From Promethearchaeota archaeon (GTDB taxonomy: Archaea; Asgardarchaeota; Hermodarchaeia; Hermodarchaeales; Hermodarchaeaceae), in NCBI GenBank assembly GCA_048938295.1, contig JBHLMI010000018.1, positions 1 to 32,000 on the forward strand: 32,000 nucleotides of DNA, in the 5' to 3' direction. The position numbers and the translations under genes were made by a program. Positions 3,299 through 23,092 of the stretch are shown here, piece by piece. The notes below the pieces were generated by a model, which saw only the letters and a program-made list of their open reading frames with translations, had not been told where the DNA came from and did not search any database. Positions within the stretch are counted from its first letter, which is position 1. Every line of letters starts with the position of its first letter.

Positions 3299-3314
3299 AA
3301 GGAGGACTTCGAAT

Positions 3315-4368
3315 CTGACAAAGTCGCAACTCCCTGCGGATAAGAAACGAAACCTAATCACCCGTGCGGAGGACACCACGAATCCCGCCTATGGTCGTAT
3401 TCCCCAGGAGCGAACCATTTCGGAACTGCTTCGGGATGGTATCATCAATCTGGATAGCTTGCTGAAGGGCGCTGAGCTCCTTTCCAAACCCAGAAAAACC
3501 TCCTGGTCCAACCAGCCATGAAGTGGTTTCGTGGGTTAAACGCATTTTAGGGTTGAATCGCGCAGGGCACTCAGGCACATTGGACCCCCAAGTTACAGGT
3601 GTACTACCTGTCATGCTAGGAAATGCGACAAAAATCGCGAATGCCCTCTTGACATCAGGCAAAGAATACATCTGTATTATGCGATTACACCAACAAGAAA
3701 AACCCCAAAAGATACGCGAAGTCGCTAGTGAATTCGTTGGAACCATTTATCAGCGCCCGCCAGTCCGCTCTTCGGTGAAACGGAGAGTGCGAACACGAGA
3801 AATCTACTACCTTGAGGTTCTCGAAATCGAGGATCAAAACGTCCTCTTCCGTGTAGGATGTCAAGCAGGGACGTATATCCGAAAATTAGTCTTTGATCTC
3901 GGGGAGGTCCTCGGAGGAGGTGCCCACATGGCTGAACTCCGCCGCACTCGTACTGGCCCTTTCAGAGAGGACGCTACTTTAGCCTCGCTCTATGATGTGA
4001 TGGATGCCTTTCATTTCTGGAACGAAGAGAAGGATGAACGGCTTCTCCGCCAATATGTGCAACCGTTAGAAAATGGTGTTGAACATCTTCCTCAGATTAT
4101 CATTCGCGATACTGCGGTTGATGCGATTTGTCACGGAGCTAACCTTGCGGTGGCTGGTGTCTTACAACTCCATACGGATATTCAACCGGGTGACCTGGTA
4201 GCCATTATGACCTTAAAGGGAGAGCTGGTAGCGCTTGCGGTTGCGCAGCAAGAGAGTTCAATGATTCTTGAGGCTACCTCAGGAATAGTAGCTGATACTA
4301 AACGGGTCGTTATACAGCAAGGAACATATCCTTCGACTTGGCAACGAAAATCCGCTAAGAAATCGTAG
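3315..4368 (+). CDS. cbf5: H/ACA RNA-guided pseudouridine synthase Cbf5; join(3315..3455,3496..4368), CTG start, 337 aa after splicing
   Basis: Exon 1 (frame 3) gives ...LPADKKRNLITRAEDTTNPAYGRIPQERTISELLRDGIINLD. Exon 2 (frame 1) gives KPPGPTSHEVVSWVKRILG...GHSGTLDPQVTGVLP, IYQRPPVRSSVKR, GTYIRKL, ELRRTRTGPF and the PUA domain. Confidence 0.93.
3456..3495 (+). other. Putative 40-nt BHB-type intron in cbf5 mRNA
   Basis: CTGG(3450-53) pairs with CCAG(3490-93); the 3-nt bulges are AT^A and AA^A. Cutting after the second bulge base joins GAT to AAA CCT (D-K-P) and restores the frame. The insert itself folds into a hairpin. Confidence 0.88.
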
Positions 4369-4397
4369 TCAAGTCATGGTTGAGAGAAAAAGAGCGG

Positions 4398-4513
4398 TGG
4401 CGCCGCGGACGAGATTCGAACTCGTGCGACCCGAGGGTCACAGGCTGTTTGGTAATCACCCACTATGAAGTAAAATTCCAGGCCTGCGCCGTAATCCACT
4501 TGGCTACCGCGGC
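4398..4513 (-). tRNA. tRNA-Ser(GGA) with 29-nt intron at 37/38 and encoded CCA
   Basis: Acceptor stem GCCGCGG/CCGCGGC, G73 and CCA; anticodon stem CAGGC/GCCTG with loop CT GGA A^A; long variable arm GACC-CTCG-GGTC; T-loop TTCGAAT; 87 nt when mature. Confidence 0.96.
4447..4475 (-). other. tRNA-Ser intron (relaxed BHB)
   Basis: Sequence TTTTACTTCATAGTGGGTGATTACCAAAC between A37 and A38; central helix CUGG/CCAA carries one C.A mismatch. Confidence 0.88.
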
Positions 4514-4539
4514 TTGCGAGTTCCTTCAGACACGTGACC

Positions 4540-4545
4540 TTTAAA
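4540..4545 (-). promoter_or_regulatory. TATA box of tRNA-Ser
   Basis: TTTAAA 27 nt upstream of the tRNA 5' end; a T-tract (CTCTTTTTCTC on the minus strand) follows the CCA as a likely terminator. Confidence 0.6.
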
Positions 4546-4614
4546 GATTTAGTTGATAGGTTTGCTCCCCTGTGATGAGAAAGAGCTCTCTGTGATTCGG
4601 ACTTTGGCAACACA

Positions 4615-4622
4615 TTTAAAAG
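4615..4622 (+). promoter_or_regulatory. TATA box of the S13-S4-S11-rpoD operon
   Basis: TTTAAAAG about 55 nt upstream of the S13 start, divergent from the tRNA promoter. Confidence 0.55.
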
Positions 4623-4677
4623 TGGCACTGTATTTCGATTGCGATAGCTCAGTGATAGTGCTATTTGAGGTGCTGAC

Positions 4678-5133
4678 TTGTCGTCATCATATCGACACAT
4701 AATCCGCGTTGCTCGGACTGATCTTGATGGAAGCCAAAAACTAGACATGGCACTAAGTGCCGTGAAAGGTGTTGGAATCCGACTAGCCCGGGCCATAGTT
4801 GAAGCAGCCGGGCTCAATCCAGAGCAACGAGCAGGCTTTATTACCGACGATGATGTCGCGAAAATCGAAGAAGTGCTCCAAGCACCCGCAAAATTCGATA
4901 TTCCCCACTGGATGCTCAATCGTCAGAAGGATATGGCTACAGGCGAGCATAAGCACATTACTGGTTCAGACCTCGACTTTCAGTTAAAACTGGACATCGA
5001 CTATATGATGAAAACCAAAAACTGGCGTGGGGTTCGCCATGGACTTGGACTACGAGTACGAGGACAGCGCACGAGAACATCAGGGCGAACAGGACGGACA
5101 GTCGGAGTAACCCGGAAGCGACAAGTTGCCTAG
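4678..5133 (+). CDS. rps13: 30S ribosomal protein S13 (TTG start)
   Basis: YRHIIRVARTDLDG, KGVG, WMLNRQKD and RHGLGLRVRGQRTRTSGR; SD GAGGTG. Confidence 0.97.
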   Translation: MSSSYRHIIRVARTDLDGSQKLDMALSAVKGVGIRLARAIVEAAGLNPEQRAGFITDDDVAKIEEVLQAPAKFDIPHWMLNRQKDMATGEHKHITGSDLDFQLKLDIDYMMKTKNWRGVRHGLGLRVRGQRTRTSGRTGRTVGVTRKRQVA

Positions 5134-5143
5134 GTGAGTGGAT

Positions 5144-5866
5144 ATGGGTGGAATACGAAAACCAAAGAAAAAATACATCCCTCCTGGGCATCCTTGGCAG
5201 AAGACCCGATTGGCTGAAGAACTGATTTATGTCGGCGAATACGGTCTTCGGAATAAACGCGAACTCTGGAAGCATCGAACCCAACTCACCCAGTTTCGTG
5301 GTACTGCTCGGGACCTCGTAGCCTTGCCCCTTGAAGAACGTGAGCTTCGTGAGGGTCAGCTACTTGGTCGATTGAACCGATTAGCCCTCATTAACGAGAA
5401 TTCCCAACTAGATGATATCTTGAACCTGACAATTCGAGATGTACTTGAACGACGCTTGCAAACACAGGTACTACGACAGGGACTTGCGAAGTCCATGCAT
5501 CATGCCCGACAACTAATCGTGCATGGGCATGTGGTCTTAGACAATCACCGTGTAACCTCGCCAAGCATGCTTCTATACCGGGGTCAGGAAAAACAACTTG
5601 CATATGCGTCCAATAGTCCGTATCGAAACCCCATTCATCCTGAAATCCCCAAGGGCGAAGTTGTCGCCCCGAAGCCAGAACCTCCAATTCCTGATGAACC
5701 AGAGAAAATCGAAGTGAAGCTTCCTAAAGTCCGCGAAATCAAAGAAGTCGTTATCGCGGAAGACGAGATCAGTGATGATCTTGACGAAGATAATGAAACT
5801 GAATTAGAGGAGCCTTCAGAAGAAGAAAAGAAAGACGCACCAACGAAAAAAGCCTCTAAGAAATAG
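5144..5866 (+). CDS. rps4: 30S ribosomal protein S4 with acidic C-terminal tail
   Basis: HPWQ, YGLRNKRELW, LERRLQT and ARQLIVHGH motifs; start at ATG 5144 after GGTGA. Confidence 0.97.
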   Translation: MGGIRKPKKKYIPPGHPWQKTRLAEELIYVGEYGLRNKRELWKHRTQLTQFRGTARDLVALPLEERELREGQLLGRLNRLALINENSQLDDILNLTIRDVLERRLQTQVLRQGLAKSMHHARQLIVHGHVVLDNHRVTSPSMLLYRGQEKQLAYASNSPYRNPIHPEIPKGEVVAPKPEPPIPDEPEKIEVKLPKVREIKEVVIAEDEISDDLDEDNETELEEPSEEEKKDAPTKKASKK

Positions 5867-5888
5867 TATGTTTAAATGGTGATGGGTT

Positions 5889-6491
5889 ATGGCGGAGGAA
5901 AAGGAAACCAAAACAGAACCGGAAGACGCAGTTGAAAAAGAACCCGAAGAGGTCGTTGAAGCTCCTGAAACAGAAGAGCCAAAACCCAAAAAGAAAAGGG
6001 CTACGCCGAAAACCGAAGAGGACAAAGAGGAAAAGCCCACACGACAAACACGAACACGCAGACCACGCTCAGGGGGACGCGCTCGTACACTCACACCAGT
6101 TGAGAGCCAGGAGAAATGGGGCGTTGCTCATATTTACAGTTCCTATAACGATACCATCGTACATATAACCGATATCACCGGTGCCGAAACAATTGCCCGG
6201 GCATCAGGTGGTATGATCGTGCGTGCTGACCGTGATGAAAGTTCACCCTATGCTGCCATGCAAGCTGCATTCCGGGCTGCCCGTGCTGCCATGGATAAAG
6301 ACATCACACGGGTTGATATTAAGGTACGAGCTCCGGGTGGGCATGGTCCTAAAACGCCAGGTCCTGGCGCTCAAGCGGCCATCCGTGCCCTTGCACGCGC
6401 TGGGCTCCGAATTGGTCGAATAGAAGAAGTAACACCGATGCCTCACGATGGTACTCGCCGTCCTGGAGGTCGGCGTGGTCGCAGAGTATAA
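5889..6491 (+). CDS. rps11: 30S ribosomal protein S11 with charged N-terminal extension
   Basis: [44 protein letters not shown] and [14 protein letters not shown]. Confidence 0.97.
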
Positions 6492-6531
6492 TGGGGTGTA
6501 ACGTAAGGCAATAAAACGAGGTGAACTGGAC

Positions 6532-7515
6532 ATGAAAGTAACTGTTCTCGAAAAAACAGAAGATGCCCTCAAGTTACGCGTAGATGAAGTAAATCCTGGA
6601 TTGATGAATGCCTTACGTCGAGTCATTATTGCTGAAACCCCATCGATGGCAATTGAAGAAGTAGTGATTCTTGAAAACCAGTCACCGCTCTTCGACGAAA
6701 TCATCGCACATCGCCTTGGTCTTGTTCCGCTCAAAACGAATTATGAAACCTATGTCCTTCCCTCCGAATGCACCTGTGAGGGCGCAGGATGCCATCTCTG
6801 CCAAGCAGGGTTCACCATGGAGGTCGAAGCCCCCGAAGACGGCTACTTAGCCACTACCGCTGACCTCAAACCCCAGGATCCCGATATTGTCCCCGTTAGT
6901 GATAAGATTCCAATTGCCAAAATGGCAAAGGGTCAACGTATTGTCGTGGAAGCGTATGCCCGACTAGGCATCGGACAAGACCACGCAAAGTGGCAGCCAG
7001 TCTCAACGATGGCCTACAAAATGATTCCTCACGTCAAAGTCAATGCCAAAAAATGTGACGGCTGCAAAGAATGCGTCGACGCTTGTTTTAGACAAGTCTT
7101 CGAAATGCAAGATGGCAAAGCCGTCGTCGTCGATGAACTAAATTGTACACTGTGCAATCTATGCGTAGAAACCTGCGATGTCCAGGCAATCACCGTTACA
7201 CATGATGATAACAGCTTCATTGTCACCATCGAATCCACGGGGGCCCTATCGCCTGAGGAAATCGTCGAGAAAGGATTAGACGTATTCAGAAAGAAGTACG
7301 AAACCCTCATCGAGCTGCTGCCGGGACGATCACCGACAAAACCCAAACCAGTTGCTAAAAAGGCTGCAGCACCTAAGCCAATAGCCGCCAAGAAGAAAAC
7401 ACCAAAGAAAACAGAAGCGAAGAAGGCCACGCCGAAAAAAACCGTTGCTAAATCTAAATCCACTAAAGCCAAGGCAAAGACCTCCACCAAAGTAAAGGCC
7501 ACCAAATCGAAGTGA
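6532..7515 (+). CDS. rpoD: RNA polymerase subunit Rpo3/D with 2x[4Fe-4S] domain and Lys-rich tail
   Basis: NALRRVIIAETP, DEIIAHRLGLVPL and HAKWQPV motifs; two CxxCxxCxxxC motifs. Confidence 0.96.
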   Translation: MKVTVLEKTEDALKLRVDEVNPGLMNALRRVIIAETPSMAIEEVVILENQSPLFDEIIAHRLGLVPLKTNYETYVLPSECTCEGAGCHLCQAGFTMEVEAPEDGYLATTADLKPQDPDIVPVSDKIPIAKMAKGQRIVVEAYARLGIGQDHAKWQPVSTMAYKMIPHVKVNAKKCDGCKECVDACFRQVFEMQDGKAVVVDELNCTLCNLCVETCDVQAITVTHDDNSFIVTIESTGALSPEEIVEKGLDVFRKKYETLIELLPGRSPTKPKPVAKKAAAPKPIAAKKKTPKKTEAKKATPKKTVAKSKSTKAKAKTSTKVKATKSK

Positions 7516-7527
7516 GAGTGAAACTGA

Positions 7528-7887
7528 GTGAAATCCAAAACAACTGATGAAAAGCGGCGACAGCTTATTATCAAACTCAAACGCCAATCCCGCAACCCCG
7601 GAGGCCGCATTTGGCGGGATTTATACGAAGACTTGCAAACTCCGCGACGGAACCGCGTCACCAAAAATGTTGGAGATTTACAGCAGCATCACACGCGTGG
7701 CCAAGTCATGGTGGTTCCCGGAAAAGTCCTTGGTGATGGAGTAATTGAAGCCAAACTCAATGTGGCTGCGGTTGACTTTTCTGAACAGGCCCGGGCAAAG
7801 ATTGAGGGTAATGGCGGAAAATGTCTGACTATTGAAGAGTTCATGGAACAAAATCCAACCGGGAAAAATGCCCAAATCATCAGCTAA
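7528..7887 (+). CDS. rpl18e: 50S ribosomal protein L18e (GTG start)
   Basis: IW..L..PRRNR, VVPGKVLGDG and FSEQARAKI motifs; conserved position. Confidence 0.93.
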   Translation: MKSKTTDEKRRQLIIKLKRQSRNPGGRIWRDLYEDLQTPRRNRVTKNVGDLQQHHTRGQVMVVPGKVLGDGVIEAKLNVAAVDFSEQARAKIEGNGGKCLTIEEFMEQNPTGKNAQIIS

Positions 7888-7900
7888 GGAGGCTAGAAAA

Positions 7901-8377
7901 ATGGTAAAATCAAAGCAACCCGCATTATCTGATGAGTCTGCGCCCATCGAGCCACTCCTAGTTGATGCTCACAATGCTGTTGCTGGACGCTTAGCAACAG
8001 TGGTAGCAAAACAGCTACTTCAAGGCGAACATGTTATAGTAATTAATGCCGAAAAGGCATTGTTGTCAGGAAATCGGTCCAGTCTCATTCTGCAATATAA
8101 GGAAGAGCTTGGACGGCGAACCCGCAGCGCTCCTTGGAAGGGGCCATTACATCCCCATCAACCCGATCGGCTTCTTCGCAGAATGATCCGTGGGATGGTT
8201 CCCTGGAAAAAGGATCGGGGTCGCAAAGCCATGAAGCGGCTCCGCGTGTACACTGGAACTCCTGACGGATTGAAAGCTAAACGGCATCTTGACGTCTCAG
8301 AGTTTGAACGGACGGGGCGTCGTACGATGTACCTAGGTGAAATCGCCCAAGAACTTGGATGGAAGGGATCAGCATGA
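7901..8377 (+). CDS. rpl13: 50S ribosomal protein L13
   Basis: VDAHNAVAGRLA, VINAEKA, GPLHPHQPDRLLRRMIRGMVP and RLRVYTGTP; ATG 7901 after GGAGG. Confidence 0.95.
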   Translation: MVKSKQPALSDESAPIEPLLVDAHNAVAGRLATVVAKQLLQGEHVIVINAEKALLSGNRSSLILQYKEELGRRTRSAPWKGPLHPHQPDRLLRRMIRGMVPWKKDRGRKAMKRLRVYTGTPDGLKAKRHLDVSEFERTGRRTMYLGEIAQELGWKGSA

Positions 8378-8775
8378 AAATAACCGTAAGTGCAGGAAAA
8401 CGGAAAACAGCCACTGCGCGTGCTACAGTACGAGAAGGAACCGGACGAATCCTCATTAACAAGATTCCGTTAGAAAATTACGATCCACTTATTGCACGGC
8501 AGATTATCGAAGAGCCAGTCTTAATCGCTGGTTCTAACATTACCTCTAAGGTAGATATTCGTGTCAACGTTCGCGGAGGTGGAACAATGGGTCAGGCCCA
8601 AGCGTCCCGTATGGCAGTCGCGCGGGCACTGGTGGACTTCACGAAGAGTGCTGATCTTCGTAAGCAGTATGTTGAATATGACCGAACGCTCATGGCAGGT
8701 GATTCGCGTCGGAAGGAAAAGAAAAAGTTCGGGGGTCCTGGTGCCCGAGCAAAGAGGCAAAAGAGTTACCGGTAG
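8374..8775 (+). CDS. rps9: 30S ribosomal protein S9
   Basis: [22 protein letters not shown] and [17 protein letters not shown]. Confidence 0.97.
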
Positions 8776-8789
8776 AGGAGACGAAATTC

Positions 8790-8990
8790 ATGATTATTCC
8801 AATTCGCTGTTTCACTTGTGGTCGGCTGGTTGCTGACAAATGGGAGGAGTATAGCCGACGCGTTCGGCAAGGAGAAGACCCTGCCGCCGTCTTGGATTCA
8901 ATGGGACTCAAACGTTACTGTTGTCGAAGAATGCTCCTAAGTCATGTAGACATCATCGATGCAGTCTTACAATTTGCGGAGCGAACATAA
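8790..8990 (+). CDS. rpoN: RNA polymerase subunit Rpo10/N
   Basis: [11 protein letters not shown]...[13 protein letters not shown]. Confidence 0.98.
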
Positions 8991-8991
8991 C

Positions 8992-9606
8992 ATGACCGAA
9001 GATCTTCTCATTGCCCTAGATCAGTATCTTGCCGCCGGTATCCACATCGGTACACAAGTGAAAACCGTCACTATGGAACCGTATATCTACCGAGTACGTC
9101 AAGACGGGTTGTATGTTCTTGACATTCGGAAATTCGATGAACGGGTCCGTGTTGCGGCACGAACGCTAGCCCGTTACGATCCCTCTACTGTAGCCGTCGT
9201 GGGCGCCCGACAATATGCCCAAAAGCCCATTAACACCTTTTGCACGATTACCGGAGCCACACCCCTATCCGGTCGGTTCATTCCTGGCACCTTCACAAAC
9301 CCACATCTACCCCAATATACAGAACCATCGATTATCTTTATCACCGATCCAAGGGCAGATGCTCAGGCTGTCCGTGAGGGGGCAAAGGTTCGAGTCCCCA
9401 TTGTGGCGCTGGTCGATACCGACAACTCCCTGCAATACATCGACCTTGCAGTGCCGTGTAACAATAAGGGCCGCAAATCCCTCTCTCTCACCTACTGGCT
9501 CCTAGCTCGCCAAGTTCTCCGGGAACGCGGTCAATTGACACCTGACGCTGAATTTCCCTTCAAAGTTGAAGACTTTGAGGCAATCTTACGCCGAACCGAA
9601 GCATAA
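8992..9606 (+). CDS. rps2: 30S ribosomal protein S2
   Basis: YLAAGIHIGTQ, RFIPGTFTNP, TDPRADAQA and PCNNKGRKSL. Confidence 0.97.
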   Translation: MTEDLLIALDQYLAAGIHIGTQVKTVTMEPYIYRVRQDGLYVLDIRKFDERVRVAARTLARYDPSTVAVVGARQYAQKPINTFCTITGATPLSGRFIPGTFTNPHLPQYTEPSIIFITDPRADAQAVREGAKVRVPIVALVDTDNSLQYIDLAVPCNNKGRKSLSLTYWLLARQVLRERGQLTPDAEFPFKVEDFEAILRRTEA

Positions 9607-9686
9607 CAAGTAAAGGCATCTTTTCGTTGAGGCATGGAAAGGCTCTTAAGCGTTCAAATCCGAATCGACCCGTAACATCCCCATTC

Positions 9687-9709: not shown

Positions 9710-9743
9710 AATATCATCTTCACACCTCTGGAGGTCAATCATA

Positions 9744-10682
9744 TTGGCTAAAGGCGCAGGATACGGGAAAACCATTCTTTTTGGCGAACATTTCGTTGTT
9801 TATGGGCTCCCCGCTATTGCCGCCGCAATCGGATCTACAACAACTGCCTTTGTACGTAGGACACAAGAATCAGGATGGAGCCTTACGGACAATCGACCTG
9901 CTGTACCTGGATACAAAAAGAAAAAACAAGATGAGCAGACTGCTTCCATCGAAAACATCCTCCGCTTTGCCGATATTGACCTCAGTGAAACAGGCATCCA
10001 CATCACACTCGGTGGAAAACTGGTTTGTGCCAGTGGAATCGGAGCAAGTGCTGCAAGCTGTGTTGCAATTGCCCGTGCACTAAACGAAGAATTCAGGCTC
10101 GGCTGGGATGATAATAAGGTAAACGCATGCGCATATGAGGGTGAAAAGGGTTACCACGGAACTCCAAGTGGCATTGACAATACGGCTGCAACTTTTGGAG
10201 GCATAGTTTGGTTCAAACGAAATTTAGAGGGTGGGGAGCCGACCATTGAAACAATTAAGATGAAAGAACCCACAGAAATCGTGATTGCCAGCACCGGAAT
10301 CACTGCCAGTACCAAGGAGGTCGTTGCTGATGTGCGCCGCATGAAGGAAGAAAAGGGGAAGTGGTTCGACCAAATCATCGAAGACTATCTAGATATTGTA
10401 AACACGGCTCGCCAAGGCTTCGAAGACCACGATTTACAACTTATCGGTCTGCTGATGAATCAAAACCACAACCTTCTCATAGAGATTGGCGTATCATGCG
10501 TGGAACTTGAAGAGTTAGTCGGTGTGTCCCGTCAAGCTGGAGCATGGGGCGCAAAACTTACGGGAACTGGGCGCGGTGGGAATATGGTAGCTTTAACGCC
10601 AGGTCGAGACCTACAAGACAATATCTTTGGTGCTATTAAGCAACGTGGCTTTTCTGCCTGGCGATATTCTATTGGTGTATAA
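9744..10682 (+). CDS. mvk: Mevalonate kinase (TTG start)
   Basis: GHMP motifs GKTILFGEHFVVYG, SGIGASAA, HGTPSGIDN and GAKLTGTGRGG. Confidence 0.93.
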   Translation: MAKGAGYGKTILFGEHFVVYGLPAIAAAIGSTTTAFVRRTQESGWSLTDNRPAVPGYKKKKQDEQTASIENILRFADIDLSETGIHITLGGKLVCASGIGASAASCVAIARALNEEFRLGWDDNKVNACAYEGEKGYHGTPSGIDNTAATFGGIVWFKRNLEGGEPTIETIKMKEPTEIVIASTGITASTKEVVADVRRMKEEKGKWFDQIIEDYLDIVNTARQGFEDHDLQLIGLLMNQNHNLLIEIGVSCVELEELVGVSRQAGAWGAKLTGTGRGGNMVALTPGRDLQDNIFGAIKQRGFSAWRYSIGV

Positions 10683-13658: not shown

Positions 13659-14807
13659 TTGGTAAAACCCCAATCAAAAACGAAATCAGAGGCAAAAGAC
13701 AACCTAACTGAAGACCGGAAACTGGACCATATTCGTATCTGTTTAGAGAGTGAAGTGGAATCCAGCATTCCCACAGGATTTGACGATATCACCTTAGTTC
13801 ATAATGCAGTTCCTGAATTGAATTTGGACGATGTGGACATTCGAACCACCTTCCTTGGACATAAACTGCAAGCTCCTTTGATGGTCACTGCCATGACTGG
13901 TGGGCATCAGGAAGCTCTAGCAATTAACAAGCACATTGCCCAGGCCGTTGAATCGCTAGGACTTGCTATGGGCGTCGGGAGTCAACGCGCTGCCGTTGAA
14001 GATGCCAGTCTAACCGATTCTTTTACGGTCACCCGCGAACATGCTCCGACAGCCTTCCTCGTTGGAAACATCGGAGCTCCGCAGCTGTCATTAGGTTGGG
14101 GTGTAGAAGAGGCGCAAACGGCGATTGACATGATTCACGCCAATGCGCTTGCTATCCACTTCAATGCCGCACAGGAAGCTGTTCAGCCAGAAGGTGAAGC
14201 GACCTTCGCTGGCGTGCTCTCATCCATTAAAAAGCTGACCACTAAGCTCTCTACGCCTCTCATTGCCAAAGAGACCGGAGCCGGCCTAAACCAAAGCTCA
14301 GCTAAAGCCTTGATGGCTGCTGGTGTCAAGGCGTTAGATGTTGCAGGACTTGGAGGAACCAGCTGGCCTAAAGTCGAGGCGAAACGCGCTAAACCAGAAG
14401 ATGCCATGAAGGCTACGTTAGGCCGTTGGTTTACCGATTGGGGAATACCTACAGCCGTAGCAACCTTTGAAGTTGCACATCATGTGAAGAAACGAATCCC
14501 CATTATCGCATCTGGAGGAATCCGGACGGGGATTGATATTGCCAAGGCTATAGCTATTGGAGCCGACCTTGCTGGTGTCGCTCTGCCAGTTCTCTCCTCT
14601 GCAATCATCGATGCACAAGCTGTTCAACTCTTTCTAGCAAGCCTGATTCATGGTCTTAAAGCCGCGATGTTTCTTGTTGGTGCTTCCAATCTCAAAGAAT
14701 TAGCCCAAGCCCCTTTGGTCATCACGGGTAGGACCCGAGAATGGCTTGAATTCCGCGTGTATGACGAACTTGTGGAATTTCAGGCTGACCGCCACATCCG
14801 CAAGTAA
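13659..14807 (+). CDS. fni: Type 2 isopentenyl-diphosphate isomerase (TTG start)
   Basis: RKLDHI, AMTGG, GVGSQR, QEAVQPEG, KETGAG, GGTSW and ASGGIRTG. Confidence 0.96.
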   Translation: MVKPQSKTKSEAKDNLTEDRKLDHIRICLESEVESSIPTGFDDITLVHNAVPELNLDDVDIRTTFLGHKLQAPLMVTAMTGGHQEALAINKHIAQAVESLGLAMGVGSQRAAVEDASLTDSFTVTREHAPTAFLVGNIGAPQLSLGWGVEEAQTAIDMIHANALAIHFNAAQEAVQPEGEATFAGVLSSIKKLTTKLSTPLIAKETGAGLNQSSAKALMAAGVKALDVAGLGGTSWPKVEAKRAKPEDAMKATLGRWFTDWGIPTAVATFEVAHHVKKRIPIIASGGIRTGIDIAKAIAIGADLAGVALPVLSSAIIDAQAVQLFLASLIHGLKAAMFLVGASNLKELAQAPLVITGRTREWLEFRVYDELVEFQADRHIRK

Positions 14808-14940: not shown

Positions 14941-14946
14941 TTCTTG

Positions 14947-15315
14947 TTGTCAAAAGCGCATGTTAAATTCACAGCACCAAAAGAACTGCAAGATATTGCA
15001 TATGAGATAATCGAGCTTGCCCGGGATACTGGCAAGGTCCGTAAGGGAACTAACGAAACCACTAAAGCCGTTGAACGAGCAATCGCGAAATTTGTCGTCA
15101 TTGCTGAAGATGTAGATCCCCCTGAAATCATCTTCCATCTTCCCGTTATGTGTGAAGAGAAGAACATTCCTTACATCTATGTTGCCAGCAAAAACAAAGT
15201 GGGCAGCTCCCTCGGCATCGATGTTCCTTCTGCCTCCGCCGCGGTCATTGAAGCAGGGGAAGCGCAGAAGCTCATCGCTGATCTTGCTAAAAAGTTGAAG
15301 GACCTACAAAAATAG
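14947..15315 (+). CDS. rpl7ae: 50S ribosomal protein L7Ae (TTG start)
   Basis: GKVRKGTNETTKAVER and IAEDVDPPEI motifs; MSKAHVKF N-terminus 6 nt after GAGGTG. Confidence 0.97.
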   Translation: MSKAHVKFTAPKELQDIAYEIIELARDTGKVRKGTNETTKAVERAIAKFVVIAEDVDPPEIIFHLPVMCEEKNIPYIYVASKNKVGSSLGIDVPSASAAVIEAGEAQKLIADLAKKLKDLQK

Positions 15316-16050: not shown

Positions 16051-16722
16051 TCAAGAGTCACTATCACGGTCTAGATCCATATTTCCCAAAATGGCGTTGG
16101 CCAGTCTATTCAGCTCTGATTCAGTCCAGTCTGGGCATTCCTCGATTAGCAGCTCAGTGATCTCAGATTGGTATGTTCCTCGATTCAGGTATTCGCGAGC
16201 ATAATCGTGGCAAATTTGACGAATTTGTTCCGTGGCTACTATTGGGGTTTCCAACCATTTGGCAATATATGCATTGATAGCTTCAAGTCCATCTTGGTTC
16301 AGGTCCAACTGGGCTTCCTTTTGCCAAAGGGCAATTTCCTTTTCTGCGTTGGCAGGTTCGTCGGAAGCATGGGCTACGTTCACCCCACCAACAATTCCAT
16401 ATTTTCCCCGAATACTGTCGGGGTTAGCTTTCTCAACAAAGGTCGCCCCCAGAACTTCTCGGAGTTGCGCAACAATATCTTCGCCTTCTAAGACGGTTAC
16501 CAGAACATTACCCACCTGGATGAATTGCAACAGCCAGGGATAGAAGAACTTGCCTTCGTGAATGGCGTAGTGTTTTTCTGCTAAATTAGATGGAACTGAC
16601 ATTTCTAGAAATCCTTTCAACTTGGCATCAGGCAGAGAATTGAGGATTTGTTCAAATACAGCTGCTCCTACACCTCTTCGCATAGTGGCATCAGGTTTCA
16701 GGATAAGTAAAGTTTGTTCCAA
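16051..16722 (-). CDS. ndk: Nucleoside diphosphate kinase with about 75-aa C-terminal extension (TTG start)
   Basis: EQTLLILKPDA, HYAIHEGKFFY, LGAT...SIRGKYG and catalytic HASD; GAGGTG 6 nt before TTG. Confidence 0.9.
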   Translation of the reverse strand: MEQTLLILKPDATMRRGVGAAVFEQILNSLPDAKLKGFLEMSVPSNLAEKHYAIHEGKFFYPWLLQFIQVGNVLVTVLEGEDIVAQLREVLGATFVEKANPDSIRGKYGIVGGVNVAHASDEPANAEKEIALWQKEAQLDLNQDGLEAINAYIAKWLETPIVATEQIRQICHDYAREYLNRGTYQSEITELLIEECPDWTESELNRLANAILGNMDLDRDSDS

Positions 16723-16817
16723 GGGGCACACCTCGAATGGCACAATTAGTTTTTCACACAAAAAGGCTTCTCTCGGTGAAGAAACTCTTCTTTCCCTGAT
16801 TTCCAGGGACATAAGCC

Positions 16818-16824
16818 TTAAATA
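16818..16824 (+). promoter_or_regulatory. Putative TATA box of infB
   Basis: TTAAATA in the divergent ndk/infB intergenic region. Confidence 0.45.
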
Positions 16825-16890
16825 GCGCAGACCTGTCGATGCAAACTAGAGCGCTGCCCTGGTAATAACGCGTTAGCGGAGGTGTTGTCG

Positions 16891-18672
16891 ATGCCCATCC
16901 GTCAACCTATTGTCACCATGCTAGGTCATATTGACACAGGTAAAACCAGTCTCCTTGACAAAATCAGAGGCACTGGAGTCCAAGCGCGTGAAGCTGGGGG
17001 CATCACTCAACAAATTGGGGCTAGTTTCTTTCCCTTATCCACGGTAAAAGAACTGGTTGGCCCCCTTATGAAGACTTTCAAGCGGAAACTAACACTTCCA
17101 GGACTACTGATAATCGACACACCCGGTCATGCTGCATTCTTTAATTTACGGAAACGGGGGGGCGCGGTAGCGGATATTGCTATTCTTGTCATCGATATCG
17201 TCGATGGGCTCCAACCGCAAACCTATGAGTCACTGCGCATTCTCCGAGCTCGTAAGACGCCCTTTCTTATCGCCCTGAACAAGGTGGATCGACAACCTGG
17301 CTGGAAACCCCAAGATACCTGGGTAATCAGCGAATCACTCAAAGCCCAATCGGAATTTGTCAAAGGAGAGCTAGATAAGAAGATCTATGAAGTCATGGGC
17401 GACCTGTCACGTGAAAACATTCAATCTGATCGCTACGATCGCATCACGAATTTCGCAAAAACTGTGGCGATTGTCCCCACAAGTGCAAAAACCGGGGAAG
17501 GATTATCAGAACTCCTCTTAGTGTTAATCGGACTTGCGCAGCAGTTTCTCGAAGAACAATTACAGACTACTAAAGGTCCCGCCAAAGGTGTCGTTCTGGA
17601 AGTTAAGGAGGAACCAGGACTCGGTATCACTGTTGACACCATCATCTACGACGGGGTTCTCCACCAGGGCGATACCATTGTCGTAGGTGGACTACCGGAA
17701 CCAATAACCACCCATGTTCGCGCTCTTCTGATGCCCAAGCCCCTCGATGAAATTCGCGATCCCCGTGAACGATTTTCACCGGTCAAAGAAGTAATTGCTG
17801 CCGCTGGTATCAAGGTTGCCGCCCCTGACTTGGATGGAGCGATTGCGGGAGCAGGTTTATTTGTAGCTAACTCTGATGACGACATCGAATCCATTAAGGA
17901 ACGCATCATTCAGGACATGGAAGCCGTTCGGATTGAAACGGACAAAATCGGAGTGCTACTAAAAGCTGACACTCTGGGCTCCCTAGAAGCACTCATCGAA
18001 TATCTGAAGGCACGCGACATTCCCATTCGCCGAGCAGATATTGGCGACATTTCGAAGAAGGAAGTGAAAGCTGTTTCCACTGTCTATGAGCACGATCCCT
18101 TCGTTGGCGTCATTTTAGCCTTCAATGTAAGACCCCTACCAGATGCAGCTAAGGAAGCCGATGAGTTAAGCGTCCCAATCTTCCAAAGCCAAATCATCTA
18201 TGATTTGGTGGACCAGTATGAGAACTGGGTCTCAGATAAGCACCGAAAACTTGAGGAGGCAATGCTTGAAGAACTTATTTTCCCTGGGAAGTTCGAAATT
18301 CTCCCAGGTTATGTCTTTCGACAGAGTAATCCTGCTGTCGTCGGCGTGAGAGTGCTTGCTGGACGCATTAGTGCCAAAAGCCACCTCATAACCCCTGACA
18401 ACCGTCGGGTTGGCTCAATTCAGCAAATTCAAGATAGTGGCGAGACCATCTCCATAGCTCGTATTGGTGCTGAAGTCGCCGTGTCCATTCGTGGGGCTAC
18501 TGTGGGTCGCCAAATCGATGAAGGTGATATTCTCTACATTGATTTACCCGAGGGAATGGTTATTCGACTTAACCAGGAGTTCAAGGATAAACTCTCAGCC
18601 GATGAACAGGAATTGTTACATGAGTTCTTGGAACTGAAACGCAAGCACGTGCAACCCTTTTGGGGCGTCTAA
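16891..18672 (+). CDS. infB: Translation initiation factor aIF5B/IF-2
   Basis: GHIDTGKT, EAGGITQ, DTPGH, NKVD and KADTLGSLEAL; ATG 16891 after GGAGGTG. Confidence 0.97.
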   Translation: MPIRQPIVTMLGHIDTGKTSLLDKIRGTGVQAREAGGITQQIGASFFPLSTVKELVGPLMKTFKRKLTLPGLLIIDTPGHAAFFNLRKRGGAVADIAILVIDIVDGLQPQTYESLRILRARKTPFLIALNKVDRQPGWKPQDTWVISESLKAQSEFVKGELDKKIYEVMGDLSRENIQSDRYDRITNFAKTVAIVPTSAKTGEGLSELLLVLIGLAQQFLEEQLQTTKGPAKGVVLEVKEEPGLGITVDTIIYDGVLHQGDTIVVGGLPEPITTHVRALLMPKPLDEIRDPRERFSPVKEVIAAAGIKVAAPDLDGAIAGAGLFVANSDDDIESIKERIIQDMEAVRIETDKIGVLLKADTLGSLEALIEYLKARDIPIRRADIGDISKKEVKAVSTVYEHDPFVGVILAFNVRPLPDAAKEADELSVPIFQSQIIYDLVDQYENWVSDKHRKLEEAMLEELIFPGKFEILPGYVFRQSNPAVVGVRVLAGRISAKSHLITPDNRRVGSIQQIQDSGETISIARIGAEVAVSIRGATVGRQIDEGDILYIDLPEGMVIRLNQEFKDKLSADEQELLHEFLELKRKHVQPFWGV

Positions 18673-18814
18673 TTTCTCTATCACTATACCTTTTATCCTC
18701 CATTCATTTGATGGTAAGATTGATAAGCGCTAATCCTATGCTACGAATTCATCAGCGCCTTCCCTACTAAGTGGAAAGTGGAACTGAATTAGTACAAAAA
18801 TTGAGGTCTCTGTT

Positions 18815-19210
18815 ATGACACGTATCCGTTTAGTCATCGGTGATCCCCATAGCGGAAAGACCATCCAACTAGAACTCAGTGAGCAGCGTAGCCGTCTCCT
18901 TCACGGCAAAATCATTGGTGAAATTGTAGATGGTGATCCCCTAGGCTTCGGGGGCTATCAATTCAAAATCACTGGTGGTAGTGATGGAACGGGAACGCCC
19001 ATGCGCCCAGATGTCCACGGTGCAGTCCGTAAGCGTCCACTGCTAGCAGGAGGGATCGGATACAAGCCCAAAACCCACGGAGAACGCCGTCGACGACGGG
19101 TTCGTGGCAACGAAATCACCGATGAAATCGTACAAGTGAATGCCAAAATCATTACTCCAGGGCCCAAACCCATTCTAGAATTAATTGAGCAAAGCACCGC
19201 TTCCTCATAA
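18815..19210 (+). CDS. rps6e: 30S ribosomal protein S6e
   Basis: KITGGSDGTGTPMRPDV, GERRRRRVRGN and VQVNAKI. Confidence 0.96.
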   Translation: MTRIRLVIGDPHSGKTIQLELSEQRSRLLHGKIIGEIVDGDPLGFGGYQFKITGGSDGTGTPMRPDVHGAVRKRPLLAGGIGYKPKTHGERRRRRVRGNEITDEIVQVNAKIITPGPKPILELIEQSTASS

Positions 19211-19250
19211 GAATTAAACATAGAAGTCCCCTATGAGATGACAAGTTATC

Positions 19251-20507
19251 ATGTCTTCCCGGAAAACCATGCCCAAACAAGCTGAAGTCAACATCGGTCT
19301 AGTGGGCCATGTCGACCATGGGAAGACAACCTTAGCAAAGGCATTATCGGGGGAATGGACTGACCGCCATTCAGAAGAGCTTCGTCGTGGAATTTCCATC
19401 AAATTAGGATATGCAGATGTCACGTTTTACAAATGTGAGAGGTGCAGTGGTGCTGTTGCATATACAACCTCACCGAAGTGCACCAAATGCGGAGGGAAAG
19501 CGGAACCCTTACGACGGATCTCACTCGTGGATGCACCTGGGCACGAAGTGTTGATGGCTACCATGATATCAGGCGCCGCATTGATGGATGGAGCAATCTT
19601 GCTCATTGCAGCGAATGAGAAATGCCCCCAACCACAAACACGGGAACACCTGGCCGCCTTGGAAATCATCGGCGTTGATAAAATCATCATTGCCCAAAAC
19701 AAAGTGGAAGTGGTATCCGAAAAGGAAGCCCTTGCCAATTATAATCAAATCAAACGCTTTGTTGCTGGGTCTATTGCTGAAAATGCCCCAATAATCCCCA
19801 TTTCCGCCATGTTTGGGACCAACATTGATTTCCTTATTCAAACCATTGAACAAGTCATTCCCACTCCCAAACGGGACTTAGAGAAGCCTGGATTGTTTTA
19901 TGTAGCCCGTTCCTTTGACATCAATAAACCAGGTACACGACCCAAGGATTTGCTTGGCGGCGTCATTGGTGGCACTATCATCCAAGGAAAGGTATCGGTG
20001 GGCGATGAACTTGAAATTCGACCCGGAATTCCAGTGAAAGAAAAAAGCAATATCAACTACACACCTATATTCACCTCGGTAAAAAGCATTCAGACCGGAA
20101 CTGGAAAATCCCTCAAAATCGCTCATCCCAGCGGCTTAATTGGAATGGGAACCAACCTTGATCCGTCGCTGACACGTGCCGATGCCTTGATTGGCAACCT
20201 TGCTGGACCAACGGGAAAGCTCCCCCCAATTATGGAGCAACTGACACTGGAATCATACCTACTCAAACGCGTTGTCGGTATGGTAGAACAGACTGCTGTC
20301 CAAGGGATAAAACCGAATGAAACGCTCATGCTGATCGTCGGCTCTTCAGCAACGGTGGGCCAGGTCACAAACATTGGAAGTAAAAACAAGATTACCTTTA
20401 CACTTAGAAAACCCGTCGCCGTGATTCCCAATCAACGTGTCGCGATAAGCCGACAAATCGAAATGCGGTGGCGGTTAATCGGATGGGGCACCGTCGTTGC
20501 CGAATAA
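19251..20507 (+). CDS. eif2g: Translation initiation factor 2 gamma subunit
   Basis: GHVDHGKTT, ELRRGISIKLGYA, DAPGHE, PQPQTREH, RSFDINKPG and WRLIGWG. Confidence 0.97.
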   Translation: MSSRKTMPKQAEVNIGLVGHVDHGKTTLAKALSGEWTDRHSEELRRGISIKLGYADVTFYKCERCSGAVAYTTSPKCTKCGGKAEPLRRISLVDAPGHEVLMATMISGAALMDGAILLIAANEKCPQPQTREHLAALEIIGVDKIIIAQNKVEVVSEKEALANYNQIKRFVAGSIAENAPIIPISAMFGTNIDFLIQTIEQVIPTPKRDLEKPGLFYVARSFDINKPGTRPKDLLGGVIGGTIIQGKVSVGDELEIRPGIPVKEKSNINYTPIFTSVKSIQTGTGKSLKIAHPSGLIGMGTNLDPSLTRADALIGNLAGPTGKLPPIMEQLTLESYLLKRVVGMVEQTAVQGIKPNETLMLIVGSSATVGQVTNIGSKNKITFTLRKPVAVIPNQRVAISRQIEMRWRLIGWGTVVAE

Positions 20508-20922
20508 TTTGCAGGCGTCTTATGGGACGAAAGTTCTGTTGGATACGAATTTTCTTCTACTCCCTTTTCAGCGCCAAATCGATATCTTTAACGAAATTCC
20601 ACGGCTAATCGGTGGGCAAGTTCATTTTGTACTCCTCCCACAAATTATCACTGAATTGGAATGGTTAAAGACTCAAGGAACTGCCAAAGAAAGACGAGCG
20701 GCGGAAAGCGCGTATCAGTTGATGGAACAATTTTGCCAAGTACTTACCGATCTTCCTGCATCTATTCAGGACCTTGACGCAGACTCCGCACTTCTACGCT
20801 ATGCGCATGAAACAGGAGCCATCGTAGCCACGAATGATGGTGCACTACGCCGAAAACTAGTAAAACAGGGTTCTCGTGCCATATTTTTACGAAAACTAGC
20901 TATCCTTGCCCTTAACGAGTAA
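20497..20922 (+). CDS. PIN-domain protein (Utp24/Fcf1-like), TTG start
   Basis: VLLDTNFLL, EL..L, DADSALL and VATNDGALRRKL; conserved position after eif2g. Confidence 0.85.
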   Translation: MPNNLQASYGTKVLLDTNFLLLPFQRQIDIFNEIPRLIGGQVHFVLLPQIITELEWLKTQGTAKERRAAESAYQLMEQFCQVLTDLPASIQDLDADSALLRYAHETGAIVATNDGALRRKLVKQGSRAIFLRKLAILALNE

Positions 20923-21009
20923 GACAAACGGTAAATACAAGAGCGTAGCAATTGAATAGAAAAGCTTATCAGCCCGACTTGTAATCGGTCGGAAGTCGGA
21001 GGCAGGACC

Positions 21010-21612
21010 ATCTACCAAGCCGTTATCATAAAAGGGCATGTGCGCATTCCGCCGAATCGGTTCAGCGAAGACCTGTATGAGGTTGCTGAAGAAATTCTTC
21101 GTGAACAATACGAAGGAATCATCGATGTCGACCTTGGGTTCATCATCGCAGTTACCGAAGTACTCGCGATTGGAGTGGGGAAAATCATTCCTGGTGACGG
21201 CGCAACCTACCATGACGTGAAGCTTGAAGTCCTTACCTTTGATCCCAAAGTGAACTTCCTTACCCAAGGCGAGGTTGTGGAAGTAGTTGATTTCGGAGCC
21301 TTCATTCGTCTAGGTCCCCTTGATGGACTCTGCCATGTGAGCCAAATTACCGATGACTTCTTCTCATACGATCCCCGAAGTGCGGCCCTGGTTGGCAAGG
21401 AGACGGGGCGAGTCATCACAGAAGGCGATTTAGTGCGCACCCGAATCGTTGCGGTTAGTATCGATGGCGGTGCCCGTAGTGGAAAACTTGGCTTGACAAT
21501 GCGACAGCCTTTTCTAGGCAAGTTTGAGTGGATTAAAGAAGAAATCGCGAAATTACTTGAATCAAAGCGAAAAGCGGAGAAGAAGAAAGAAGGAAAAGAT
21601 AAGGAAAAATGA
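21010..21612 (+). CDS. rpoE1: RNA polymerase subunit Rpo7/E' (inferred ATC start)
   Basis: xYQAVIIKGHVRIPP N-terminus, GDGATYH, GAFIRLGPLDGLCHVSQI and GLTMRQPFLGK; GGAGG 7 nt before ATC; in-frame stop at 20953. Confidence 0.93.
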   Translation: MYQAVIIKGHVRIPPNRFSEDLYEVAEEILREQYEGIIDVDLGFIIAVTEVLAIGVGKIIPGDGATYHDVKLEVLTFDPKVNFLTQGEVVEVVDFGAFIRLGPLDGLCHVSQITDDFFSYDPRSAALVGKETGRVITEGDLVRTRIVAVSIDGGARSGKLGLTMRQPFLGKFEWIKEEIAKLLESKRKAEKKKEGKDKEK

Positions 21613-21660
21613 TAAGCTCCTTGATTTCCTAACCCGCAAAACCCGATACTGGTGATGAAA

Positions 21661-21849
21661 ATGGCCAAACGAAAAGCATGCAAAGTCTGTCATACGATGA
21701 CAACTAAATCACATTGTCCAGCCTGCAAAAGTACCAATCTTTCAGAGAGCTTCTCCGGGCTAGTTTTGATTTTTGATCCCGAACATTCCATGATTGCCAA
21801 GAAACTCAACATCACTAAAGATGGGGAATACGCTCTCCAAGTCCGTTAG
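21661..21849 (+). CDS. spt4: Transcription elongation factor Spt4 (RpoE'')
   Basis: ACKVCH...CPAC...SESFSGLVLIFDPEHSMIAKKLNI...YALQVR. Confidence 0.95.
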   Translation: MAKRKACKVCHTMTTKSHCPACKSTNLSESFSGLVLIFDPEHSMIAKKLNITKDGEYALQVR

Positions 21850-21858
21850 GTGAAATAG

Positions 21859-22434
21859 TTGGCTGCCAAGCAGCTGCGACAAAATACCCTTGTACTCCCC
21901 GACCATCTTCGTCAATCACTCCAAGGACCGAAAGGCGAGCTGTTCTCCCGAACAGACTTAGGCGCGGCAGAAGACGCTTGCGCTTATATTCGGAAACACA
22001 AGCTAGCTCCCGTCATCGCGGTTGGTGACTTGGTCTCGATTAATCTAGCGAAGGTCAACTGCCAAGCCACCCTGTCTATTCTGGATGGAAAAACAAAGCG
22101 CAATGATCCTGTGGAATTTTCCCTAACAACTGATGTCACCTTTACAGCAACAAATGCTGCTGCTGAAATTCGTCCTGAGGTATGGATTGCCATCGAACTA
22201 GCCCTCACTGCTGGTCAATCTGGCAAAACTGCGAAACTCTTAATAGAGGGCGAAGAGGACCTAACGGCACTGCCCGCAGTGGCACTTGCACCCTCTGGCT
22301 CAGCCGTTGTATACGGGCTTCCCAATCAGGGCATAGTTGTCATTAAGGTCGCGGCAGAGCACAAACAGGCAGTAAACGCAATCTTACAAGAAATGGTGCA
22401 AAAAGATGAAAATCAAAATCGAAGAGAAAAATGA
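21859..22434 (+). CDS. GTP-dependent dephospho-CoA kinase (DUF359), TTG start
   Basis: VGDLVS, DGKTKR, NAAAEI, IEGEEDLTALP and VVYGLPNQG. Confidence 0.88.
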   Translation: MAAKQLRQNTLVLPDHLRQSLQGPKGELFSRTDLGAAEDACAYIRKHKLAPVIAVGDLVSINLAKVNCQATLSILDGKTKRNDPVEFSLTTDVTFTATNAAAEIRPEVWIAIELALTAGQSGKTAKLLIEGEEDLTALPAVALAPSGSAVVYGLPNQGIVVIKVAAEHKQAVNAILQEMVQKDENQNRREK

Positions 22435-22876
22435 CAATGCGCTCCTTCAGCGTCAGGAAATTACTTTCTTAATTGATCATACGGGAACTGCGACACCTCC
22501 TCGCGTTGATGCCCGTGCAAAACTTGCTGCTATGCTGAATTGCAAAGAAGATCAACTCTATATCATTAAACTTGTTGGACAATATGGCCAATCCATCTCT
22601 CAGGGCTATGCTCATCTTTATCCTTCAAAAGAAGCTGCCGAAACGCAAGAACAGACGTACATCAAAAAACGAAATGGCGCTGAAGAGGCTACACAGCCAC
22701 CCGCCATGAAAGTAGCCAAACCTGCGGCCAAAGAGAAGAAAGAAGAAGCCCAAGAGGCATCAAAAGAAAAGGCTGAAAAGCCACTAGAGCCGCTTAAAAA
22801 GAAGGAAGATGAAAAGCCCAAGCGAGAAGAGGACAAAAAAGAGAAACCTCGGGCAGAGAAAAAGGAAGGGTCATAA
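22406..22876 (+). CDS. rps24e: 30S ribosomal protein S24e with Lys/Glu-rich tail
   Basis: NALLQRQEI, HTGTATPPR, KLAAMLN and GYAHLY. Confidence 0.93.
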   Translation: MKIKIEEKNDNALLQRQEITFLIDHTGTATPPRVDARAKLAAMLNCKEDQLYIIKLVGQYGQSISQGYAHLYPSKEAAETQEQTYIKKRNGAEEATQPPAMKVAKPAAKEKKEEAQEASKEKAEKPLEPLKKKEDEKPKREEDKKEKPRAEKKEGS

Positions 22877-22909
22877 TTCGATTCAAGAATTAATAAAAGG
22901 TGAAATCCG

Positions 22910-23092
22910 ACGACAAAGACACACAAATATTACTCTGTTGGAAAGGATGGAAAACTCGAACGTAAACGCAGGTCATGTTCACGCTGCGGTGAAGGCACCT
23001 TCATGGCAGAACATGCCAATCGGTTCCACTGTGGCCGTTGTGGGTTTACAGAATATAAGCCCTCAAAGAAGAATGAGGGGAAAGAAACTTAG
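22910..23092 (+). CDS. rps27ae: 30S ribosomal protein S27ae (inferred ACG start; absent from the ORF track)
   Basis: Manual translation gives (M)[59 protein letters not shown], with a C4 zinc ribbon; conserved position after S24e. Confidence 0.93.

Follow-up and report, generated by a model that had tools for sequence, protein, structure and literature searches.

The window analysed here is the whole stretch of 32,000 nucleotides that forms the first 32 kb of contig C9 (GenBank JBHLMI010000018.1, assembly GCA_048938295.1) of an uncultured Asgard archaeon (Promethearchaeota) of the family Hermodarchaeaceae, whose genome of 2.52 Mb lies in 66 contigs and is 91.6% complete. It contains a conserved block of information-processing genes, nearly all on the + strand, with gene identities supported by Pfam. 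In three of these genes, cbf5, rpoE' and rps27ae, the start position is occupied not by ATG, GTG or TTG but by a near-cognate codon (CTG, ATC and ACG, respectively) behind a Shine-Dalgarno (SD) sequence. The features of the three genes are the following; BHB stands for bulge-helix-bulge.

3300-3305, + strand: SD sequence AGGAGG of cbf5, 9 nt before the CTG and complementary to the 3' end of the 16S rRNA, GGAUCACCUCCU
3315-3317, + strand: cbf5 start codon CTG, placed by positional match to the starts of sister genomes; in-frame TGA at 3270
3315-3455, + strand: cbf5 exon 1, 47 codons, ending in ...INLD
3456-3495, + strand: cbf5 intron, 40 nt, BHB-like, between INLD and KPPGPTSHEVV (context 3449-3500)
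3496-4368, + strand: cbf5 exon 2 (KPPGPTSHEVV...), with TruB_N, TruB_C_2 and PUA
20998-21002, + strand: SD sequence GGAGG of rpoE', 7 nt before the ATC
21010-21612, + strand: rpoE' (Rpo7) coding sequence with start ATC 21010-21012; in-frame TGA at 20953, start conserved in sister genomes
22898-22903, + strand: SD sequence AGGTGA of rps27ae, which holds an in-frame TGA (22901) and lies 6 nt before the ACG
22910-23092, + strand: rps27ae (eS31) coding sequence with start ACG 22910-22912, assigned by sister-genome position and Pfam

Starts were assigned from the strength of the SD sequence and by comparison with the homologous position in sister genomes, of which five to seven were used. On the basis of these comparisons, we consider it very likely that CTG 3315, ATC 21010 and ACG 22910 are the real translation starts of cbf5, rpoE' and rps27ae. 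A preceding sequence-only reading had claimed that each site has an in-frame stop upstream, no standard start before the conserved N-terminus and an SD at the usual spacing, and all of this was borne out. The 16S rRNA of the genome ends in GGAUCACCUCCU, which carries a canonical anti-SD. When the spacing upstream of ATG starts was profiled genome-wide, GGAGG peaked 9 nt before the codon, AGGTG 7 nt and GGTGA 6 nt, a register that fits this 16S 3' end, and the three near-cognate codons were found in the same register as the canonical starts of the genome.

In cbf5, the 47 codons of exon 1 contain no ATG, GTG or TTG, and the DKCLD domain begins at residue 4 of the product. The identity of Cbf5 is supported by DKCLD, TruB_N, TruB_C_2 and PUA matches above the Pfam gathering score. 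The start position is occupied by CTG in six, GTG in six and ATG in one of the congeneric genomes, and in a three-protein tree the CTG characterizes a single clade, which comprises at least five species.

The ATC TAC of rpoE' aligns with Met1 of the MY(K/Q) that opens RpoE' in other Asgard archaea, and a metagenomic relative begins MYQAV. SHS2_Rpb7-N and S1 were both matched above the Pfam gathering score. The start codon was ATC in all 14 genomes of the genus; in the sister genus, represented by four genomes, the gene was found in three, with ATT, CTG and ATT at this position, and in most other Asgard families the start is ATG. Across residues 2-40, only 3 of 33 codons for invariant residues keep a single codon throughout the genus, while codon 1 is invariant. 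Thus, since codon 1 is fixed while nearby silent sites vary, the start is constrained as nucleotides. In one subclade (G006, G002 and G005), an in-frame ATG lies two codons before the conserved ATC and 1 nt after the GGAGG; it may be a secondary canonical start picked by gene callers (MNIYQAV).

In rps27ae, the next ATG falls within the zinc ribbon. The Ribosomal_S27 profile scored above the gathering threshold, and its positions 1-44 align from residue 4 of eS31. Among the family genomes the start position holds ACG in nine and ATG in six, with a stop at -9 in most, and the distribution of the two codons on the three-protein tree requires at least four independent switches.

To look beyond the window, we scanned the genome for strong SDs (at least 6 nt) that lie at the 5' edge of a coding open reading frame (ORF) with no canonical start in reach. 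An in-frame near-cognate codon was present in the spacing window of 37 of 90 such orphan SDs, compared with 17% of SD-like motifs deep in genes. Counted by triplets, near-cognates made up 41 of 145 in-frame and 21 of 305 off-frame triplets (odds ratio (OR) 5.3, p=6e-9), CTG and ACG being enriched approximately 5-fold each and ATA approximately 4-fold. Nine further candidates, seven of them drawn from the orphan-SD scan lists, were then checked in sister genomes, and eight were confirmed by position. The claim that such starts extend beyond these loci was therefore supported both by the candidates (8/9) and by the orphan-SD enrichment. The ninth, an ATT at C66:14677, has a variable N-terminus among relatives and its position was not judged.

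One of the eight is tfb, which has ACG in 18/18 family genomes (17-18/18 in the codon-constraint comparison), with a TAA directly before the ACG in the sister genus; starting at the next GTG would cost TFB the first CPxC of its Zn ribbon. The ACG is held in a gene where only 3 of 22 codons for invariant residues keep a single codon. In genome G000 (contig C39:19487-19501) tfb opens with ACG ACG AAA GAA GTA, and codons 3-5 do not differ by a single nucleotide among the 18 family genomes, suggesting that the RNA around the start is under constraint. The set of TFB paralogues is unusually large, with 8-11 TFB-like matches per Hermodarchaeia genome.

In most of the other candidates the near-cognate codon alternates with canonical ones. 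The korB start is CTG, TTG, GTG or ATG among sister genomes, that of an ABC ATPase is ATT, ATT, ATT, ATC and ATG, that of a SLOG-type protein ATC, ATA, ATC, ATC and ATG, and that of a NifX-like protein ACG, ACG, GTG, ATG, ATG and ATG. An FMN reductase has CTG where sisters have ATG, ATG, TTG and ATG, and a NuoB-like subunit has ATA where five genomes have ATG, while an 'IPRGL' protein has ATC or ATT in all genomes. The Pfam profiles of the tested near-cognate genes start at residues 2-13. The near-cognate codons thus hold the homologous start position, are conserved in some genes and interchange with canonical starts in others. The sequence-only reading had placed them in core information-processing genes; this fits cbf5, rpoE', rps27ae and tfb, but the korB, ABC ATPase, FMN reductase, NuoB-like and NifX-like genes show that they are not confined to information processing and also occur in metabolic and other genes.

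We estimate that the genes with near-cognate starts number in the tens, or about 1-3% of the genome. This figure is derived from the orphan-SD excess of approximately 20-30 genes and from the 3 of approximately 42 genes in the window, which are an ascertained sample because the window had already been flagged. Automated calling of start columns mis-called internal Ile and Lys columns in weak-SD genes, and the columns were rescored. Two apparent cases were rejected: korA really begins ATA-ATG, the ATG being the start, and the codon in a DUF134-like neighbour is an internal Ile. For comparison, a survey of 36 prokaryote groups found, among 61,358 ancestral AUG starts, 2 switches to CUG and 1 to AUU (PMC5622118), rates that rest on annotated starts and are blind to such codons. 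Near-cognates occupy 3 of 14 variable start columns in the window (OR 36 relative to those rates), so that their share is far above the published one; the contrast may reflect either something genuinely different about these archaea or a blind spot of gene callers in general.

The remaining non-ATG starts in the window are canonical TTG and GTG codons:

1139-1726, + strand: adk, TTG behind GGAGGT; TTG, TTG, GTG, ATG, ATG, GTG and ATG across genomes; AAA_17
1732: gene with a TTG start, checked against sister genomes
4678-5133, + strand: rps13, TTG behind GAGGTG; TTG in 7/7 genomes; Pfam match
7528-7887, + strand: rpl18e, GTG start; GTG or ATG in sister genomes; Pfam match
9744-10682, + strand: mvk, TTG behind GGAGGT; TTG or ATG in sister genomes; GHMP kinase
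13659-14807, + strand: fni (type 2 IDI-like), TTG start; TTG in six genomes and ATG in one; FMN_dh
14947-15315, + strand: rpl7ae, TTG start, with tandem TTG TTG at 14944/14947; Pfam match
16051-16722, - strand: ndk, TTG at 16722 behind GAGGTG; ATG in 7/7 sister genomes
20497-20922, + strand: PIN_9 protein, TTG start with weak SD; TTG conserved in the genus; Pfam match
21859-22434, + strand: DUF359 protein, TTG behind AGGTGA; TTG in 8/8 genomes; Pfam match
25980-27476, + strand: RecJ-like DHH protein, TTG start; TTG in 7/7 genomes; DHH, DHH-CID and DHHA1

In ndk, position 1 of the NDK profile aligns at residue 2 of the product. The sequence-only reading had counted 13 non-ATG genes of 41, nine of them with TTG; its one GTG and three near-cognates stood, while the addition of the gene at 1732 raised the TTG starts to 10 and the total to 14 of approximately 42. 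From one sister genome to another, ATG, GTG and TTG replace each other freely at the same start position. Genome-wide, the genes with an SD of at least 6 nt comprise 116 with ATG, 50 with TTG and 40 with GTG, a usage of TTG and GTG that is ordinary for archaea (PMC4705826). To call non-AUG initiation pervasive was hence apt for TTG and GTG, which are normal in archaea, and not for near-cognates at their low share of genes. GTG 21652 was rejected as the start of spt4, as one sister genome has a stop between GTG 21652 and ATG 21661. In the G010 ortholog of the gene at 24172, TCA is found where six genomes have ATG, and an ATT precedes it at an SD-appropriate distance; this is likely another near-cognate start in a sister genome.

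The sequence-only reading was silent on the 40-nt insert that interrupts cbf5. Because of this insert, ORF lists show only a fragment of the gene beginning at GTG 3523. Removal of 3456-3495 fuses INLD to KPPGPTSHEVV. The insert can be folded with a central helix of 4 bp (CUGG 3450-3453 with CCAG 3490-3493) and two 3-nt bulges (AUA 3454-3456 and AAA 3494-3496), and cuts after the second nucleotide of each bulge restore the frame. An inner helix of 5 bp keeps its pairing through A/G changes while the hairpin is variable, and the outer helix is weak, as in the relaxed BHB form. In 13 congeneric genomes the insert measures 40, 41, 42 or 43 nt, thus covering all three classes modulo 3, and in most of them it contains stops; it was absent in five other Asgard families. 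By fold and comparison, the insert is assigned as a BHB-type intron. Like the crenarchaeal cbf5 pre-mRNA intron, which interrupts the catalytic Asp codon (Yokobori 2009, PMC2738675; also Watanabe 2002), it is a short BHB-type element with a variable interior in the same gene, cut between the second and third bulge nucleotides. The Hermodarchaeia site differs in lying approximately 25 codons upstream of the catalytic Asp, between INLD and KPPGP, and this different site, together with its occurrence in an Asgard genus, indicates that the intron was probably gained independently. Approximately 1.6 kb of extra DNA splits the cbf5 match of two sister genomes inside exon 2, at the equivalent of window position ~3889 (G006 C30 ~47886-49525 and G010 C9 ~50465-52100); a mobile element, an intein and a second intron are all possible identities for it.

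As to how the near-cognate codons would be read, the 16S 3' end GGAUCACCUCCU would pair with an SD of 5-6 nt and thereby put the codon 6-9 nt downstream into the P site, where the ordinary initiator Met-tRNA (anticodon CAU) would be accepted with one mismatch. We infer this mismatch pairing, Met as the first residue of the protein, and a lower efficiency than at canonical starts. Codons with one mismatch (CTG, ATC, ATT, ATA and ACG) would then form a fourth and probably weaker class of starts in the family, swapping with ATG, GTG and TTG over evolutionary time, with those of tfb and rpoE' fixed for the life of the genus or family, and the initiation check of the group would be tolerant enough for near-cognate alleles to persist. 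As the tfb ACG and the rpoE' ATC are fixed while silent sites around them vary, tuning by weak starts, with low output selected in these two genes, is possible.

Several points weigh against reading these codons as starts, or against reading them as common. The GTG at 21040, ten codons into rpoE', could yield a shortened protein in the genus. No near-cognate start was found among approximately 57 resolved, unselected neighbour genes around eight validated loci, so the genome-wide share must be small and is poorly bounded. In 800 kb of a Methanosarcinaceae control the same enrichment gave an OR of 1.9 that was not significant; with only 26 strong-SD genes the control was underpowered, and the false-positive rate of the method is therefore poorly calibrated. 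Finally, near-cognate starts in bacteria and yeast usually reach at most a few percent of the efficiency of AUG (PMC4705826), which is hard to square with their use for TFB, an RNA polymerase subunit and a ribosomal protein, unless the efficiency is higher here or the demand is low.

The sequence-only reading ascribed relaxed start selection to 'this lineage', and this proved too narrow. When the in-frame versus off-frame comparison at orphan SDs was applied to 800 kb of a closed genome from Odinarchaeia, near-cognates were found in 17/54 versus 12/116 (OR 4.0, p=0.0017), and the asd gene of this genome (G019:C1:137649) starts with ACG where three sister Odinarchaeia genomes have ATG. In the same class, a MoaA-like protein, an aldehyde dehydrogenase, a molybdopterin-oxidoreductase-like protein and a metallophosphoesterase are more candidates, with ATA, ATT or AAG. 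Near-cognate starts are thus probably not a property of Hermodarchaeia alone, and the sharing of the trait with at least one other Asgard class points to a property of a wider group. A literature search on Asgard archaea and non-canonical start codons found nothing. We tentatively propose, as a reading that may well prove wrong, that Asgard archaea as a group (Hermodarchaeia, Odinarchaeia and probably others) have an intrinsically permissive start check, that SD-positioned CUG, ACG and AUH are routine for approximately 1-3% of genes, and that weak starts in core genes (TFB ACG; Rpo7 ATC/ATT/CTG) are kept by selection as an expression set-point.

A narrower explanation would be a loss of stringency specific to Hermodarchaeia, in which a change in aIF1, aIF1A, aIF2, initiator tRNA or 16S rRNA relaxed proofreading. 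The presence of five kinds of near-cognate codons in unrelated genes would be expected from such a loss, and one family-specific change was indeed found: aIF1 of Hermodarchaeia (G000:C61:65105-65410, - strand) carries G(V/I)I(V/L)L(Q/M)GDHR where other sampled Asgard archaea have GRIELQGDHR (G(R/T)IELQGDHR when M. jannaschii is included). The classical yeast Sui- mutations D83G and Q84P reportedly map to the GD motif that adjoins this change. However, the Odinarchaeia genome has the standard motif and yet shows the same enrichment and the ACG start of asd, so that the motif, the only family-specific change in aIF1, is a lead and not evidence.

No substitution of the fidelity-relaxing kind raised by the sequence-only reading was found in the tRNA used for initiation, in the anti-SD, in the basic loop of aIF1 or in KsgA. 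With A1:U72, a GGG/CCC stem below the anticodon loop and the anticodon CAU, the initiator tRNA is canonical, and it was the only one of initiator type among the 31 tRNAs detected by aragorn, which missed intron-bearing ones; an alternative initiator tRNA was therefore rejected. Loss of aIF1 was rejected as well, since the genome encodes a full-length factor that retains its zinc knuckle and shares 54% identity with M. jannaschii aIF1 across the alignment. Its basic loop RKWGR, which corresponds to R31-Y32-G-K34 of P. abyssi aIF1 (PMC6237735), is common to all sampled Asgard archaea. A full-length match to KsgA was obtained in 18 of 19 family genomes, and loss of KsgA/Dim1 was rejected on this ground. 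A weak start in the gene of a fidelity factor itself, as in infC, was not seen either: the aIF1 gene starts at ATG (MSEICP...), and the affected genes are functionally diverse.

We also considered helix 45 of the 16S rRNA. In G000 (C48, 1318-1445) it contains two inserts, of approximately 59 and 32 nt, flanking the 6-nt piece GGGGAA, which is the loop with the universally dimethylated adenosines. G014 resembles G000, G006 has only the second insert, and G029 and G021 have inserts at other positions; none were found in the sister genus, Odinarchaeia, G024, G025 or G027. An altered helix 45 was rejected as the cause, because the sister genus uses near-cognates with a plain helix 45 and there is no correlation. 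The same 16S gene of G000 has an insert of 617 nt (~123-740) at Rfam model position ~916 and one of 63 nt in helix 44 (~1215-1277). With the machinery canonical at these points and Odinarchaeia showing the same signal, a lineage-specific loss of stringency is unlikely.

We regard as quite improbable that translation begins at the next canonical codon downstream, in which case the proteins would be shorter and the near-cognate codon would belong to an untranslated leader. The internal GTG of rpoE' provides such a start, and many database calls of relatives begin there (MRIPPNRF...), but this GTG is missing in the sister genus. More generally, the residues before the next canonical codon are conserved and are parts of domains: a later start would take the first Cys pair from eS31 and the first CPxC from TFB, and the profiles of the FMN reductase and of the NDK type already begin at residue 2. 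Moreover, where this genome has a near-cognate codon, sister genomes have ATG, GTG or TTG at precisely that position and with unchanged SD spacing.

Slightly less probable still is restoration of the start by C-to-U RNA editing, which would convert ACG to AUG and CUG to UUG. Both ACG and CTG rank among the codons with the highest enrichment, and one such change would make either of them canonical, but the ATC, ATT and ATA starts of rpoE' and the ABC ATPase, SLOG-type, NuoB-like and IPRGL genes are not repairable in this way. To our knowledge, no mRNA editing system of the C-to-U kind has been described in archaea.

An upstream exon that provides an AUG through BHB splicing could be imagined, as there is a BHB-type intron in cbf5, 140 nt past the start codon, and the 16S helix 45 has inserts; the normal SD distance, the canonical codons that sister genomes have in place behind the same leader, and the lack of a BHB-like fold or frame break at the three starts make it highly improbable. 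Hardly any weight can be given to sequencing or assembly errors or to decaying genes devoid of a start codon: the genome is a 66-contig metagenome-assembled genome (MAG), but the same codons are found again in 14-18 genomes that were assembled independently, separate Logan contigs from the best-matching sediment run (approximately 40x; depth 38-43) are identical across all three sites, and the genes belong to the single-copy core, are intact and evolve as coding sequence, in agreement with the sequence-only reading, which had considered such errors unlikely.

Together, the sequence comparisons confirmed near-cognate codons as apparently real, conserved starts that are spread genome-wide over a small share of genes and are not confined to the lineage. 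The expectation that gene callers would truncate or mis-extend such genes was also fulfilled, as the RpoE' calls of close relatives in databases are mis-started. They begin at five places, with MRIPPNRF (the internal GTG), MYEVAEE, MGRLIPG, MEKLISP... (extended to ATA) or MNIYQAV, and are truncated at an internal GTG or ATG, extended, or devoid of the N-terminal domain. The same mis-annotation is to be expected for TFB, eS31, Cbf5 and metabolic enzymes in Asgard MAGs, which are heavily mined for eukaryote-like proteins. If the proposed group-wide permissiveness is true, published Asgard proteomes, including proteins that bear on the origin of eukaryotes, would be systematically mis-started, and eukaryotes would have arrived at their strict AUG rule from an ancestor that was notably lax. 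The conserved set of tfb (ACG), rpoE' (ATC) and rps27ae offers material for studying near-cognate initiation of the eIF1/eIF2 type in an SD context, and the near-cognate genes bear on the origin of stringent AUG selection in eukaryotes.

Among known systems, the rare starts of bacteria (E. coli infC AUU; CTG, ATT, ATC and ATA in NCBI table 11) are similar in being positioned by an SD, having one mismatch to the initiator anticodon, being conserved in particular genes and being read by the normal initiator tRNA. In E. coli, however, near-cognate starts are found in a handful of genes and are tied to IF3 autoregulation (PMC4705826), and in prokaryote comparisons switches to such codons are approximately 100 times rarer than those from AUG to GUG (PMC5622118). 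Unlike infC, the present case would involve tens of genes, including those for TFB, Rpo7, eS31 and Cbf5, and the archaeal factors aIF1 and aIF2; further, NCBI table 11 does not contain ACG as a start, whereas ACG is among the commonest near-cognates here.

Archaeal initiation at GUG and UUG shares the SD register and the free interchange with ATG, but involves a first-position wobble that is accepted everywhere, while the starts described here also include mismatches at the second (ACG) and third (ATC/ATT/ATA) positions. The ACG starts of plant organelles, which are edited to AUG, are comparable in that a genomic ACG stands at essential genes and alternates with ATG among species, and differ in that ATC, ATT and ATA lie beyond C-to-U editing. 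Asgard archaea are the closest archaeal relatives of eukaryotes, and near-cognate initiation in eukaryotes, policed by eIF1 and eIF5, resembles that proposed here in the prominence of CUG and ACG and in the homology of aIF1 to eIF1 and aIF2 to eIF2. In eukaryotes, though, the position is set by scanning and Kozak context and near-cognates mostly serve upstream ORFs and N-terminal extensions, whereas here the position is set by the SD and the near-cognate codon is the sole start of core genes.

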